This document shows, in pieces, positions 3,320 through 23,180 of a DNA stretch of 64,000 nt (the first letter of the stretch is position 1; each line of letters starts with the position of its first letter). The notes under the pieces were generated by a model. It searched no databases, was not told the DNA's origin, and saw only the letters and a program-made list of their open reading frames with translations. The DNA is taken from positions 1,811 to 65,810 of the forward strand of contig JALEGK010000067.1 of NCBI GenBank assembly GCA_022763105.1. Reading direction: 5' to 3'. The position numbers and the translations under genes were made by a program. Source of the stretch: Rickettsiales bacterium. Lineage in GTDB: Bacteria > Pseudomonadota > Alphaproteobacteria > Rickettsiales > UBA3002.

Positions 3320-4696
3320 ATGATTAGGGTTTTATCGTTGGTTTTAGCCCTCACTTTTAGCGTTATCTCTGTCTCTGAAGCTGCCACCAAAATTAATGTC
3401 CGCTCTAGTAAATACGCAGCCCTCGTTATGGATGCGGATACGGGCGAAGTGCTTTTCTCCAGAAATGCGGACAAAAAACGTTATCCCGCATCACTCACCA
3501 AGATGATGACCCTGTATATGCTGTTTGAAGCGCTTTCTTCCGGCGAAGTGTCTATGTCTACACGCCTGAAAGTGTCTGCCAAAGCGGCGTCGCAGCCACA
3601 AACAAATATTAGCCTCAAATCAGGCGAGAGTATTCGCGTGTCAGATGCGATTCGTGCGCTAGTTGTCCGCTCAGCTAACGATGTTGCGCTAGTGATTGCC
3701 GAAGCATTAGCAGGCTCTCAAGCCGCCTTCGCAACGCAAATGACAAAGAAAGCGCGCCAGCTTGGCATGCGCCGTACCGTTTTCAGAAACCCGCATGGCT
3801 TGCCAGATAAAAACCAGTTCACCACTTCTCGTGATATGGCAAAGCTCAGCATCGCGCTACGTCGTGACTTTCCTCAATATTATAATTTCTTCAAAACCAC
3901 GGTTTTCCGCTGGAAGGGCAAGACATACAAATCTCACAATAAGGTGCTAGGGCGCTTTAACGGCGTAGACGGCATTAAAACCGGCTATATCCGCATGTCT
4001 GGCTTCAACCTCGCCACATCAGTAAAGCGTGATGGTTATCATATCGTCGCGGTCGTTATGGGCGGCCAGAATAGTAAAGCGCGCGATAATCATATGCTAT
4101 CGCTTCTATCGCGTACCTTCACCGTGCTAAATGACCGCGGTGATCGCCCACGTGTTTTCGCCAATGCCCCTGTGCCTGTACCGAAACCTGATACGACGCG
4201 CCGTAGCTTCACGACGGTCTCGGCAAAAACTATTGAGGTCGATGACAAGCTCGTCGTTCCACACAGTGAAACGGTTGAGTTGAAAATGGGCAATGCAATT
4301 ATTGTCCCACGAGATAAGCCGGAAGCATTCGCCAATGTTCGCGCTATCTCTACCGCAGCGAAAGAAACGCTGCCGCGCTCTAGCCTGCAACCTGCAAGCT
4401 TAGAGCTTCCATCCAGATCATCTCCAAACTTTAGCAATAGCTGGGGAATACAGGTGGGAGCATTCCAAGATCAAAAAAGTGCGCTATATGCAGCAGCTAA
4501 TGCCGTGAAAATGGCGCGCGACACATTACGCAACTCTAAAATAATGGTGAGCGGCCAAGGTCGCATTGGCAGCACGATTCACCGTGCACGCTTAGCTAAC
4601 CTATCCGAGACCGAGGCGAAGCGCGCCTGCCGCCAACTGGTGGAAAATAATGCACAATGCTTTGTCTTTAAAACGGAACGTCTAGCGGGGCTTTAA
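3320..4696 (+). CDS. Serine-type D-Ala-D-Ala carboxypeptidase (S11) with C-terminal SPOR domain
   Basis: 458 aa. Signal peptide, SxxK (ASLTK), SxN (SAND) and KTG (KTGYI) motifs. The C-terminal WGIQVGAF...[16 protein letters not shown] segment is SPOR-like. RBS is AGGGAG. Confidence 0.85.
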
Positions 4697-5640
4697 GCGC
4701 TTTGGCGTAATGCCTTTGGCAGATTGAATTTAATCGTCTCAACAATCCCATCATGCATATGAGTTTCCGTATCAAACTGCGTTGATAGAAACGTCTGCAC
4801 GCGCTCTATCAAAATCTCAGGAGCCGACGCACCAGCGGTGATGCCAACTCTAGAGACGCCATCAAACCACTCAAGCTTGATATCTTTCTCATCCGATATC
4901 AGATAAGAGGGGATCCCATTCTCTTCGCCTAAATCACGCAAACGATTAGAGTTTGAGCTATTGCGAGCACCCACCACTAACAACAAATCCACATCTTGCG
5001 AAATTTCGCGCACAGCTTGCTGACGGTTCTGTGTAGCGTAGCAGATATCATTAACATCAGGCCCTTGAATATCTGGATATTTAGCGCGCAAAGCCGCAAT
5101 AATATCGCGCGTATCATCCACGCTCAGCGTTGTTTGGGTGACGTAGGCGAGCGGAATATCCGCAGGCAGCTCAAGCTTTTCCACATCATCAATATCGGAA
5201 ACCAAATGTACCTTCTTCACGCGGCCACTTGTGCCCTCAACCTCAGGGTGCCCCTCATGACCAATCAGAATAATCTCCGAGCCATCACGTTCATATCGCT
5301 TAGCCTGATAATGCACTTTGGTTACAAGCGGGCAGGTGGCATCGAGTACAGGCAGATTACGATCAAGCGCCGAATTCTCAACAGCTTCCGAAATGCCGTG
5401 CGCGCTAAAGATAGTGACCGCACCATCGGGAATTTCATCAACCTCTTTGACAAAGATCACCCCCTTTGCACTCAGCGTATCCACCACCCATTTATTATGA
5501 ACAATCTCATGGCGGACATAAACAGGCGCACCATATTTCTCTAGCGCCTTTTCAACGATTTCAATGGCACGCTCAACCCCAGCGCAAAACCCTCTCGGTT
5601 GCGCCAAGACAATCGTTAGTGGAGTAGGGGAATTAGCCAT
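4693..5640 (-). CDS. ispH: 4-hydroxy-3-methylbut-2-enyl diphosphate reductase
   Basis: 315 aa. LytB/IspH pattern (GFCAGV, HEIVHN, ATCPLV, SSNSNRL). Its stop overlaps the convergent dac gene by 4 nt. Confidence 0.9.
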
Positions 5641-19017: not shown

Positions 19018-19755
19018 TTATTCCATATGCTGACCGCCATTTACAGACAGTGTCTCACCGGTAATAAACCCAGCTTCGTCTGCAATCAGGAAGCAAACCG
19101 CACGCGCGATTTCTTCTGGCTCGCCCAAACGGCCAACCGGAATGCCTGAAATGATTTTATTCAAAATATCTTCTGGCACAGCGCGCACCATGTCGGTGCC
19201 AATATAGCCCGGAGCTACCGCATTCACGGTAATGCCCTTGGCTGCCGTCTCGCGAGCAAGCGCTTTGGTAAAACCAAAAATACCAGCTTTAGCAGCAGAA
19301 TAGTTGGTCTGACCAAACTGACCCAACTGACCATTCACAGAAGAAATATTGACGATACGACCAAATTTGCGATCACGCATCGAATCGATCACGCATGCCA
19401 CCATATTGTAGCAAGAAGAAAGGTTCGTTGCGATCACGTCATTCCAATTCTCTTCTGACATTTTGTGAATCGCACCATCACGCGTAATACCCGCATTGTT
19501 GATCAGCACATCAACCGGCTTACCCTTAGCTTCTACAATCTTTGCAATCTCAGTCTTACAAGCTTCAGCGTCTGACACATCCCACTTAGCAACATCGATA
19601 CCGGTTGCTTCTTTGAATGCGTTGGCTTTCTCATCGTTACCCGCATAATTGGCAACCACCTCATAGCCTGCTTGTTTTAAATCCACGCAAATCGCCTTAC
19701 CAATACCGCGCGTACCGCCGGTTACAATGGCTAAGCGCCCATCACCTTTTGACAT
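19018..19755 (-). CDS. phaB: Acetoacetyl-CoA reductase (SDR)
   Basis: 245 aa. TGGTRGIG cofactor motif and the YSAAK catalytic motif. Adjacent to phaA. Confidence 0.85.
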   Translation of the reverse strand: MSKGDGRLAIVTGGTRGIGKAICVDLKQAGYEVVANYAGNDEKANAFKEATGIDVAKWDVSDAEACKTEIAKIVEAKGKPVDVLINNAGITRDGAIHKMSEENWNDVIATNLSSCYNMVACVIDSMRDRKFGRIVNISSVNGQLGQFGQTNYSAAKAGIFGFTKALARETAAKGITVNAVAPGYIGTDMVRAVPEDILNKIISGIPVGRLGEPEEIARAVCFLIADEAGFITGETLSVNGGQHME

Positions 19756-21024: not shown

Positions 21025-22008
21025 CTAGCTGTTGTGCAGCGCGTCAATCCACTTGGCATGTGGAAGCCATAGCTCTTTCTTGGCACGCTTACCCACAATC
21101 ATGCTGACATGCCCGCAATCCGGCGTAATCACATCGCAATCATCAATCATTTCACCCAAAGGTAAGGCGCTATGAAGCGGCACGATACGGTCTTGAGTAG
21201 GAGCAGAAATAAAAGTCGGACACTTAATAAGCTCAGGATCAATGCGCCATCCACGCACGCGCCATTCACCTTTGGCGAGCTTATTATTATACGGCCATTC
21301 AATTAAACATTCTTTCGCCACGGCCTTTGTTAACGGCACCCCGTCATTCACCCACGCCTCTACACCTAAGAAATGCTGACGTTCTTTTGGCTTCATCGTA
21401 GCCAATTTTGAATATTTCTGCTGGAAGTGCCACGGATTCGCCATATGAAAAGCCGATTGCACCCACGAAGCGGGCACATAGCTCTGCGCATCAATTTGCG
21501 CTTCAAACTCACTCAATGCGCGGTCATCAAGCAAATGCATATTCACACCTTGCGCCTTAAAATCCCATGGTGTGGCAAGCAATGTCAAACTATCGACATA
21601 ATAAGATTCAAGCTGGGTGAGGGCGAGGGCGAAGATACCGCCCATACAATAGCCAAGTACATGAATCGGCCCATCATGTTTACGGTAAATAGAGCGCAGC
21701 GCATCCCGCGCAAATTGATAGACATAATCGGCACAATCAAAATTCTGCTCGCGTAGGCCCGGCTCACCCCAATCCAACAGAAGCGGACGATAGCCTCTAT
21801 CAAGATAGAACTGCACCAAGCTCACCTCAGGGTTGAGATCCAGAATGTAAGATTTATTGATAAGAGAAGGGATACAGAAGATCGCAGGAGCATCGCGGTC
21901 TCCGCCATAATCTAACAATCTGGCATGGCCTTTTTGCCAAATCACATTACAGGCAGATTCTGCACGATAGCCCGGCTCACTTTGATACAGCGACAAGCCT
22001 TTCAGCAT
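21025..22008 (-). CDS. phaC: Short (class III/IV-like) poly(3-hydroxyalkanoate) synthase
   Basis: Lipase box GYCMGG and an alpha/beta core. The length from ATG 22008 is 327 aa, with TTG 22041 as an alternative. The 460-aa ORF-track version (to 22407) would overlap the upstream gene by 329 nt in another frame, so I truncate it. Confidence 0.75.
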   Translation of the reverse strand: MLKGLSLYQSEPGYRAESACNVIWQKGHARLLDYGGDRDAPAIFCIPSLINKSYILDLNPEVSLVQFYLDRGYRPLLLDWGEPGLREQNFDCADYVYQFARDALRSIYRKHDGPIHVLGYCMGGIFALALTQLESYYVDSLTLLATPWDFKAQGVNMHLLDDRALSEFEAQIDAQSYVPASWVQSAFHMANPWHFQQKYSKLATMKPKERQHFLGVEAWVNDGVPLTKAVAKECLIEWPYNNKLAKGEWRVRGWRIDPELIKCPTFISAPTQDRIVPLHSALPLGEMIDDCDVITPDCGHVSMIVGKRAKKELWLPHAKWIDALHNS

Positions 22009-22078
22009 CGCTTCCGAGCGGTTACACGCCTCAACATGCAACGCCTCTACAAATTGCTGATAATCGATGCCATCAACA

Positions 22079-22555
22079 TCAGGATTTAGTGCGTTTAACG
22101 GCCTTTTTGACCGTCCGTTTAACGGCTGATTTTTTTGCTGTTGGCTTGGCAGCAGGCTTTCGGGTTCGAGTAGTCTTTCCAGCTGCGCTAGCTCTTGCAG
22201 CAGGCTTGCTGCGCTGTTCACTTTGTTTTTTGCTCGTTTTGGCTGCTGGCTTTTTCTTCGGCGCTGGCTTTTTGGCTGGTTTTGCTTGGCCCTCAAGCTC
22301 TCTAATTCGTCGTTCGCAATCTGCCAAGCGCTCTGAGAGCACGCGCAATTCATCATCATAAACATGAGATGCATCGGCAGTGTTTCGATGGGAGGATTCG
22401 CTCGCATGGTTAAATGGATTTGCCTCCTTTTGAAAACGCTGCATCATTTGCATCATCTGACTGATGGTGTCTTGCGAGTTCAGCGATTCCGTCAAGCGTT
22501 CCTGCCACATATCGAGAAAAGCGCTTGCGATCTTTTGATAATCTTGTTGTGCCAT
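22079..22555 (-). CDS. PHA-granule-associated protein candidate (PhaE/PhaF-like) with histone-H1-like K/A/P-rich tail
   Basis: 158 aa. It sits where phaE lies in phaEC operons. Helical N-terminus (FLDMWQERL), heptad segment LRVLSERLADCERRIRELE, then AKPAKKPAPKKKPAAK...KKAVKRTKS. Confidence 0.6.
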   Translation of the reverse strand: MAQQDYQKIASAFLDMWQERLTESLNSQDTISQMMQMMQRFQKEANPFNHASESSHRNTADASHVYDDELRVLSERLADCERRIRELEGQAKPAKKPAPKKKPAAKTSKKQSEQRSKPAARASAAGKTTRTRKPAAKPTAKKSAVKRTVKKAVKRTKS

Positions 22556-22664
22556 AAATCATTGCCAGAAGTGATTTGTCGTTTGTGTTTTTATAAGCTA
22601 AGCTATAAGAACAAAGCATAAGTTGTTTAACCACAAAATCAATTGGCAAGATAAGAGGGAAGGC

Positions 22665-23180
22665 ATGGCGAAAAAATCAACGAATAAAGATGAGCCGGTA
22701 GTAGTTAAAAAATACGCGAATCGCCGCCTATACAACACGCAAACCAGCACGTATGTTACGCTCGATGATCTGTGTGAAATGGTCAAAGAAGGTACCGATT
22801 TTATTGTGTGCGATGCAAAATCTGGCGATGATCTAACCCGCCAAGTGCTCACTCAAATCATTTTCGAACAAGAATCACGTGGCGAAAACCTGCTTCCAAT
22901 CGGCTTTTTACGTAATCTGATTGGCTTCTACGATGATAACATCAAGGAGTATGTGCCGCATTATCTTGAGAAAACGATGGAAACCTTCATCACCAATCAG
23001 GAAAAAATGCGTGAGATGATGGGCATGAACCAATTTGGCAATCCTTTGGAACAACTAGAAGAAATTGGTAAGCAAAACATGGAGTTTTTCTCTAAAACCA
23101 TGGGTCAAACCATGGAAAACATGGAGAATATGGGCAACATGTTTAATCCATTCACCGCTCCGGATAATGACAAAAAGTAA
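22665..23180 (+). CDS. phaR: Polyhydroxyalkanoate synthesis repressor PhaR
   Basis: 171 aa from ATG 22665 (RBS AAGAGGGAAGG). Signature KKYANRRLYNTQTSTYVTLDDL. Divergent from the pha operon. Confidence 0.85.
   Translation: MAKKSTNKDEPVVVKKYANRRLYNTQTSTYVTLDDLCEMVKEGTDFIVCDAKSGDDLTRQVLTQIIFEQESRGENLLPIGFLRNLIGFYDDNIKEYVPHYLEKTMETFITNQEKMREMMGMNQFGNPLEQLEEIGKQNMEFFSKTMGQTMENMENMGNMFNPFTAPDNDKK

Follow-up and report, generated by a model that had tools for sequence, protein, structure and literature searches.

Polyhydroxyalkanoate (PHA) synthases (PhaC) are divided into four classes, some of which are encoded beside a small helical partner. In the class III system of Haloferax mediterranei plasmid pHM300, the gene for PhaE (182 amino acids [aa]) lies immediately upstream of phaC and overlaps it by just 4 nucleotides (nt). 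The class IV synthase of Priestia megaterium, a PhaC of ~360 aa, has the ~20-kDa partner PhaR. PhaM of Cupriavidus necator (Ralstonia eutropha), a protein of ~32 kDa, binds PhaC1, which it activates, and its histone-like PAKKA tail links granules to the nucleoid; PhaM and PhaF are accessory proteins and not obligatory subunits (PMC9049629). The 419-aa synthase AbPhbC2 of Azospirillum baldaniorum Sp245 is not a class I enzyme and is unstudied (PMC11338129). Here we describe the PHA locus in a 64,000-nt stretch of contig JALEGK010000067.1 from a Rickettsiales bacterium (the window), in which phaC and a gene for a small PhaE-like protein, phaX (product X), share a long segment of DNA on the same strand but in different reading frames. 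Codon-position statistics and comparative sequence evidence indicate that both are genuine protein-coding genes.

Both frames are under purifying selection in the shared DNA, with the constrained frame alternating by segment. Nucleotide entropy was calculated per codon position across 32 loci; as phaC is read in frame +1 relative to X in the window, X position 1 corresponds to PhaC position 3 and X position 3 to PhaC position 2. In the N-terminal domain of X, which lies outside phaC, entropy was 1.11 bits at X position 1 and 1.45 bits at X position 3 (p=1.6e-4), indicating selection on the X frame. This order was reversed in the N-terminal motif of PhaC (1.17 and 0.47 bits; p=0.0024), where the PhaC frame is selected. 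Selection on the X frame was again observed over the X coiled coil (1.25 and 1.52 bits; p=0.019) and, weakly, over the segment encoding the X tail and the PhaC linker (1.22 and 1.42 bits; p=0.004). The coiled-coil signal reappeared in a PhaC-based alignment, in which PhaC position 2 was often the most variable in columns 26 to 56. As the signal of each frame is visible also in the alignment of the other protein, alignment bias is not the explanation. The constraints are interleaved: the PhaC motif falls within the disordered linker of X, and the coiled coil and basic tail of X fall within the poorly conserved linker of PhaC. It is this interleaving that allows the two genes to coexist. An initial annotation of the locus had posed a choice between one translated frame and the other, which loses its object with both frames under selection. 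Its derivation of all the overlapping frames from low-complexity DNA coding for Lys, Ala and Pro holds for the distal overlap only, as the proximal ~125 nt encode the conserved PhaC motif and the X coiled coil.

The length of the X frame was evaluated by holding the PhaC protein fixed and resampling synonymous codons. In 2000 such trials for the window, the X frame never remained open across the observed overlap; averaged over the 32 loci, 22% of trials left it open. The overlap is more than a product of chance. The third sense frame contained stops in 31 of the 32 loci. A 90-aa open reading frame (ORF) antisense to the overlap was considered as a further gene and rejected on compositional grounds. 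The sense strand of the overlap contains only ~14% T, and its complement therefore seldom forms stop codons; among relatives, the antisense frame is haphazardly open or interrupted, running through the whole overlap in some and broken by stops in many.

The arrangement is widely conserved. Eighty phaC loci were collected from GTDB species genomes and searched with X (tblastn), and an X homologue directly upstream of, and overlapping, phaC was found in ~32 alphaproteobacterial loci. X adjoined phaC upstream on the same strand, the placement of PhaE, in all 43 loci examined, and phaC was in frame +1 relative to X in every one of them, cultured Azospirillum argentinense Az39 among them. Overlap length ranged from 134 to 392 nt (32 loci measured), with the X start 130 to 163 nt ahead of the phaC start. 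The same arrangement was present in more distant loci (L026, L033, L034, L036, L038, and L045) and in four loci reached from X and not from PhaC, all of which read phaR-X-phaC. It was likewise retained, in the order phaR-X/phaC-phaA-phaB, on a GC-rich, noisy contig (L081). The overlap is thus conserved across a large and deep alphaproteobacterial clade in which PhaC identity falls to about 31 to 37%, and the tblastn loci and cluster counts uphold the earlier proposal of a real gene beside phaC, here seen to be conserved, in the 158-aa ORF. One candidate non-overlapping locus (L027) was rejected as an exception, since it carries a frameshift inside phaC and the PhaC motif is present in frame +1. 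In another relative, a tandem 15-nt repeat lies in the overlap just upstream of the PhaC motif (L097:2736-3055) and is read as four copies of PDSL(A/S) in X and four of (S)PRTL in PhaC, an expansion tolerated in both frames.

The features of the locus are collected in Table 1. The ORF list and the sequence confirmed the three ORFs (460, 158, and 90 aa) and the 329-nt overlap described in the initial annotation, and family models did the same for phaA, phaB, and phaR. The order is phaR, divergently transcribed, followed by phaX-phaC-phaA-phaB. An Rfam scan of the window returned no matches. Many relatives share a TTGGCAAG-like motif in the intergenic region between the divergent phaR and phaX, 10 to 20 nt ahead of the X start; its versions in the window (region 22556-22665) are ctggcaat before X and attggcaagataagaggg before the phaR ATG at 22666. 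This motif could be a shared operator, promoter, or leader part.

Table 1. Features of the phaR-phaX-phaC-phaA-phaB locus, in window coordinates
Feature	Position	Strand	Remarks
phaX (product X, 158 aa)	22079..22555	-	Stop codon 22079-22081; gene for small PhaE-like protein
phaC (460 aa, PHA synthase)	21025..22407	-	Stop codon 21025-21027; start inside phaX, frame +1
phaX/phaC overlap	22079..22407	-	329 nt; same strand, out of frame
Antisense 90-aa ORF	22089..22361	+	Compositional by-product, not a gene
X helical hairpin, residues 2-45	22421..22552	-	Upstream of phaC start; AlphaFold2 helices 2-25 and 28-45
X disordered linker, residues 46-62	22370..22420	-	pLDDT < 50 at residues 49-58 (AlphaFold2)
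X coiled coil, residues 63-91, YDDELRVLSERLADCERRIRELE	22283..22369	-	Inside phaC codons 14-42; AlphaFold2 helix, pLDDT ~90
X basic disordered tail, residues 92-158	22082..22282	-	pLDDT < 50 (AlphaFold2)
Shine-Dalgarno-like AAGGAGG	22423..22429	-	15 nt upstream of phaC ATG, within X codons 43-45
PhaC N-terminal motif, residues 5-20, PPIETLPMHLMFMMMN	22348..22395	-	Near-invariant positions; variation at PhaC position 3
PhaC linker, residues 41-115	22063..22287	-	Variable, mostly disordered (AlphaFold2, alignment)
PhaC alpha/beta-hydrolase core, residues 116-460	21028..22062	-	Triad, TIGR01836, and fold matches
PhaC catalytic C254	21646-21648	-	Invariant in 20-sequence alignment
PhaC catalytic D406	21190-21192	-	Invariant in 20-sequence alignment
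PhaC catalytic H433	21109-21111	-	Invariant in 20-sequence alignment
phaA	19779-20960	-	Downstream of phaC; acetyl-CoA acetyltransferase model
phaB	19018-19755	-	Downstream of phaC; acetoacetyl-CoA reductase model
phaR, PHA-responsive repressor	22623..23180	+	Divergent; TIGR01848 144 bits, above cut-off of 109; PF07879 and PF05233 matches

Judged by its homologues, the 460-aa frame is the real synthase frame. A search with this frame returned ~1900 homologues, the majority of the best being 430 to 500 aa long and covering 97 to 99% of the query; the nearest shares 58% identity with the window PhaC. The lineage-specific N-terminal motif IETLPMHLMFMMM is near-invariant among homologues and was found in 43 of 43 loci, with codon positions 1 and 2 almost fixed in the PhaC frame and position 3 the most variable. 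In an alignment of 20 sequences, L10, P11, H13, and L14 were near-invariant, and the consensus of the extreme N terminus was I-D/E-T-L-P-L/M-H-L-x-L-x-M-M. The AAGGAGG sequence ahead of the phaC ATG is the candidate ribosome-binding site; relatives carry GGAG 10 to 14 nt upstream of their phaC ATG. Five in-frame ATGs (codons 12, 15, 17, 18, and 19; M-H-L-M-F-M-M-M) lie in the motif region at 22353-22374, and the Met-rich character is kept in relatives (MMRMPDALPMHLMLAMMQ). Alternative initiation inside this cluster is possible.

In the AlphaFold2 model of PhaC (mean predicted local distance difference test score [pLDDT] of 81), residues 10 to 43 form an N-terminal helix, with pLDDT of 73 to 78 across residues 1 to 20. 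Residues 41 to 63 and 80 to 111 are disordered (pLDDT < 50), and the core is confidently modelled from residue 116 on. The linker differs in sequence and length between homologues. It contains an in-frame insertion, ...(E/W)IPAFAGMT..., in L005, L015, L023, L026, and L027, with a variant in L016; the insertion looks like a GC-rich palindromic repeat element, which suggests that the linker tolerates insertions. The top fold matches in the PDB were PHA synthases (A. caviae 9knk, Chromobacterium 5xav, and C. necator 5hz2), as were the PDB sequence matches. The lipase box GYCMGG, reported earlier for this locus, is present and contains C254. Computationally, the core thus has a PHA-synthase fold with an intact Cys254-Asp406-His433 triad.

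The core is, on profile and sequence scores, nearer to class III/IV than to class I, yet it falls below every curated cut-off. The best-scoring NCBIfam PhaC model was that of class III (TIGR01836; 159.7 bits, E 9e-47, residues 150-455), far below its cut-off of 365.3 bits, and the class I model TIGR01838 gave 119.3 bits against a cut-off of 622.65. The match to PF07167 was limited to the last 50 positions of the model, exactly at the threshold of 23.7 bits, short of the ~190-aa PhaC_N domain of class I. Class I chains in the PDB matched PhaC with E values of 1e-18 to 1e-14. The hydrolase core, the lipase-box Cys, and the Cys-Asp-His triad are those of class III; the length of 460 aa, with a conserved motif and a linker, is not, as class III enzymes have ~355 aa and no N-terminal domain. 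The ranking of the two scores favors a class III-like PhaC, as first described. Distant PhaC-like genes with 28 to 35% identity (L041, L043, L044 [Micavibrio-like], L039, L040, L042, and L046) occur without X and without the LP-H-L motif, and the absence of both bounds the clade carrying the overlap.

X combines a helical N-terminal domain, a heptad segment (LRVLSERLADCERRIRELE), and a strongly basic tail, as had been noted in the initial annotation and as sequence and AlphaFold2 agree. A10, W17, and Q18 in the N-terminal hairpin are invariant (A..F..LWQ motif), and R76, E81, and L87 in the coiled coil are near-invariant. The DNA of the intervening linker also holds the putative phaC ribosome-binding site, the phaC start codon, and most of the PhaC motif. 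The tail reads AKPAKKPAPKKKPAAK...KKAVKRTKS; the last 68 aa contain ~38% K+R and 32% A+P and have a net charge of +25. A basic tail (net charge of at least +9) is present in 29 of 32 relatives, with medians of 45 aa, 37% K+R, and a net charge of +14.5, and its sequence drifts while its basic character stays. Translated in the PhaC frame, the same DNA yields a neutral product rich in Q, S, P, and N. A first word-based search with X found two homologues only, one of which shares a 36-kb contig with a PhaC called at 340 aa; gene callers were hence suspected of picking one ORF of the two. A profile search with the X family found 48 clusters, every one annotated "hypothetical," and an exhaustive hidden Markov model search found 838 representative clusters (E<=1e-3), nearly all of 90 to 200 aa.

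No family of Pfam or NCBIfam was matched by X. The PhaE model PF09712 was absent at E<=0.1 from the most frequent families of 141 X members and at E<=1 for 34 members, the NCBIfam scan of X yielded no PhaE and no PhaM-type family, and the phasin models PF05597 and PF09361 were not listed for the window X or among the most frequent families of the 141 members. The Pfam and NCBIfam scans of the family returned only sub-threshold coiled-coil models (DUF7310 in 65 of 141), and a PDB profile search with X solely coiled coils of generic or designed type. Authentic sequences of PhaE and PhaR were taken from annotated loci of H. mediterranei (pHM300), Halogeometricum borinquense, Haloferax larsenii, and P. 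megaterium, reached by a plasmid search with the PhaC core. PhaE was present in one of six haloarchaeal plasmid loci fetched, giving three usable PhaE sequences together with those of H. mediterranei and H. larsenii. Compared by hhalign, the X profile matched H. mediterranei PhaE with a probability of 84.8% (E 6.5e-6) over 78 columns, X 9-92 to PhaE 88-172. The three-sequence PhaE profile was matched in the same region with a probability of 61.9% (E 7.6e-5). H. borinquense PhaE alone gave 11% (E 0.0028), in the first of two similar PhaE segments and in another register, and the class IV PhaR of P. megaterium was negative (0.5%, E 0.11). In controls, real PhaE gave 39.5, shuffled sequences 12.0 +/- 2.4 (maximum, 21.5), and reversed sequences ~12 to 13, in support of the match to H. 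mediterranei PhaE. The X-PhaE alignment spans the F..W helix and the coiled coil, the latter pairing with the C-terminal helix of haloarchaeal PhaE. These results are suggestive only of X being a remote homologue of the C-terminal half of small haloarchaeal PhaE.

The profile comparisons that had been named as a check on the initial annotation thus gave TIGR01836 as the best PhaC model and no PhaE or phasin family match for X. Given the hhalign comparison with haloarchaeal PhaE, X can reasonably be called a mini-PhaE with an H1-like tail. The suggested relationship to PhaF and phasins found no detectable homology, and PhaM is the closer functional analogue for the tail. Among loci L046 to L077, 9 of 10 ORFs upstream of a class III-like phaC had no PhaE signal. 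In L049, from an uncultured bacterium, a 135-aa coiled-coil ORF (3597-4004) with weak PF09712 (E 0.002) and phasin matches directly precedes a 360-aa PhaC (4037-5119) without overlap, an arrangement that may resemble a pre-overlap state. As a bridge between X and PhaE this ORF was rejected, the X profile having matched 26 coiled-coil columns only (probability of 18%). On the haloarchaeal plasmids L086, L087, L088, and L091, a phaC paralogue follows a MaoC-like dehydratase gene, flanked by an integrase gene and with no phaE adjacent.

The best plasmid matches to the window PhaC were in Azospirillum brasilense and A. argentinense (36 to 37% identity). On plasmid p4 of A. argentinense Az39, PGAP annotates phaR, a 415-aa "alpha/beta fold hydrolase," phaA, and phbB, with a 485-nt gap upstream of the hydrolase left without annotation. 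This gap and 230 nt of the hydrolase gene encode a 170-aa X in the +1 arrangement, with an Arg-rich end after the LAQRYLDLWQEQ motif and a coiled coil. Literature searches turned up no account of the overlapping X gene. The annotation error is systematic: X is deleted, as by PGAP in Azospirillum, or the synthase is truncated to ~310 to 380 aa, and a family of hundreds of sequence clusters is hidden. This accounts in concrete terms for the failure so far to explain PhbC2, which is plasmid-borne in Azospirillum, and heterologous expression from the annotated synthase ORF would leave out the N-terminal third of the probable partner. Azospirillum is also a tractable organism in which the overlap idea can be tested.

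Several alternatives concern which of the two frames is real. The initial annotation favored a short class III-type synthase of ~330 aa whose start lies beyond the stop codon of X, the 460-aa frame being an accident of low-complexity sequence. Additional frames do stay open in T-poor DNA, the alignment to the class III model covers only residues from 150 onward, and some gene callers yield PhaC models of 320 to 360 aa in relatives. However, those short models are found where the caller kept X and then had to truncate PhaC. In the PhaC frame of the window, start codons occur at positions 1, 12, 15, 17 to 19, 38, and 63, of which only ATG-1 is preceded by AAGGAGG, and then not before 123. Beyond the X stop, the earliest possible starts are TTG (codon 123) and ATG (codon 134); both lie within a conserved and confidently modelled helix (residues 116-143) and have conserved columns upstream of them, which makes a start there untenable. 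Homologue lengths, codon periodicity, and a near-invariant N-terminal motif that varies at PhaC position 3 contradict it too, and we give this explanation hardly any credence. The converse possibility is that only phaC is real and that the X ORF, or its part inside phaC, is untranslated and conserved as a shadow of PhaC. The yield of two homologues in the first search and the missing PGAP annotation in Azospirillum are in keeping with it, and the X segment HDANARRPAHAPDA in relatives is a true shadow of the PhaC motif. Yet X begins with ~49 codons that phaC does not share, and these have a clean X-frame periodicity with the invariant A10, W17, and Q18; in the coiled coil, variation falls on X position 3 (PhaC position 2), unlike a shadow of PhaC. 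As the X frame is also far longer than synonymous resampling of PhaC permits and the basic composition of the tail is maintained, a mere shadow is very improbable.

The invariable +1 phase might instead be taken as a sign of programmed +1 ribosomal frameshifting that produces an X-PhaC fusion, and two database proteins, P0174 (L082) and P0312 (L081), do look like such fusions. These were rejected as natural fusions, since the assemblies behind both contain internal deletions or multiple frameshifts, and both proteins' loci keep a separate PhaC motif in +1. Moreover, phaC has its own conserved ATG and Shine-Dalgarno-like sequence 4 to 10 codons before the motif, no conserved slippery site was noticed, and one ancestral event, with both frames under selection thereafter, would be expected to leave the phase invariant, so that frameshifting is highly implausible. 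A different alternative accepts X as real but makes it a granule scaffold, phasin-like or regulatory, and not a catalytic subunit, with the overlap serving co-regulation only. X passes no PhaE or PhaR model, the N-terminal extension of PhaC might itself stand in for a partner, and PhaM and PhaF set a precedent as accessory proteins (PMC9049629). Against this, X and PhaC were always found together and physically interlocked (43 of 43 loci), the profile similarity to PhaE spans the F..W helix and the coiled coil, and there is no phasin-family signal. We regard a purely accessory X as rather unlikely.

Taken together, it is probable that these are two genuine overlapping genes that arose by a start shift and that X is a PhaE-like partner with a polyanion-binding tail. 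Several observations weigh against this explanation. The case for translation of X and of PhaC rests on sequence in every organism. No curated PhaE, PhaR, PhaM, or phasin model in Pfam or NCBIfam matches X, the H. borinquense PhaE match is weak and in a different register, and the comparison with class IV PhaR was negative. The 15-nt distance between the Shine-Dalgarno-like sequence and the phaC ATG is long, no clear Shine-Dalgarno sequence precedes X in the window or its closest relatives, and in L031 and L035 X ends right after the coiled coil, without a basic tail. Furthermore, A. brasilense Sp7 no longer accumulated polyhydroxybutyrate once its chromosomal class I phbC was disrupted, and the plasmid-borne AbPhbC2 was never shown to be active (PMC11338129), so that the synthase activity of the clade is putative.

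Under the two-gene explanation, the phaC start codon most likely shifted upstream into an adjacent phaE-like gene (overprinting), an event that would have been fixed once, in an alphaproteobacterial ancestor. phaC would initiate independently at its internal ATG. X is most likely a non-catalytic partner or activator of PhaC, by analogy the counterpart of PhaE, class IV PhaR, or PhaM, and, like the PAKKA tail of PhaM, the basic tail of X probably serves as an anchor that holds the synthase or nascent granule to a polyanion such as DNA. The rate of phaC initiation may depend on ribosomes translating X; as these cross the phaC initiation site, the overlap could set the X:PhaC ratio. More tentatively, and with slightly less than even confidence, we propose that the locus represents a two-component PHA synthase of a type that has gone unrecognised although widespread among Alphaproteobacteria, in which the N-terminal extension of the synthase arose de novo by overprinting the 3' two-thirds of a phaE-like gene, locking partner and synthase in shared DNA. 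Such a type would lie outside the four classes, its partner mixing PhaE-like and PhaM-like features. The overlap also illustrates how two proteins can share DNA by alternating ordered and disordered segments. It belongs among the well-supported, deeply conserved, long same-strand overlaps of functionally linked bacterial genes, which are rare.

Among described systems, the class III pair of H. mediterranei is similar in having a small non-catalytic gene immediately upstream of phaC and a short catalytic core with a Cys-Asp-His triad. In contrast, the window PhaC has an extra N-terminal extension of ~115 aa and scores 159.7 bits where the class III cut-off is 365, and X corresponds to only half of PhaE, carries a basic tail in addition, and fails PF09712; the overlap is 329 nt and not 4 nt. 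The class IV pair of P. megaterium resembles X and PhaC in its helical partner with a C terminus rich in K, A, E, and P, and its PhaC was the best named bacterial tblastn match (31.6% identity, E 7e-39). However, its phaR and phaC do not overlap and have phaB between them. PhaM shares with X a helical N-terminal part and a histone-like C-terminal tail rich in Lys, Ala, and Pro (PAKKPAPKKKPAAK in the window), a likeness of composition only, with no sequence homology detected. Unlike X, it is a larger protein (~32 kDa), serves a class I synthase, and is encoded neither next to phaC nor overlapping it. AbPhbC2 and its Az39 counterpart belong to the same PhaC clade (36.5% identity) and have the phaR-phaC-phaA-phaB order and an overlapping X. 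The Az39 locus differs in being GC-rich and in its shorter, Arg-rich tail, and the published description is silent on the overlapping gene. As to the overlap itself, the routes to gene overlap listed in PMC2268670 include a start-codon shift. Long same-strand overlaps formed by such a shift or by overprinting are similar in that one DNA stretch is read in two frames, the newer of which is disordered or of low complexity, as overprinted regions usually are. The bacterial overlaps that turned up in our literature search were mostly antisense, young, and narrowly distributed, whereas the one described here lies on the same strand, joins genes of linked function, and spans a deep clade.

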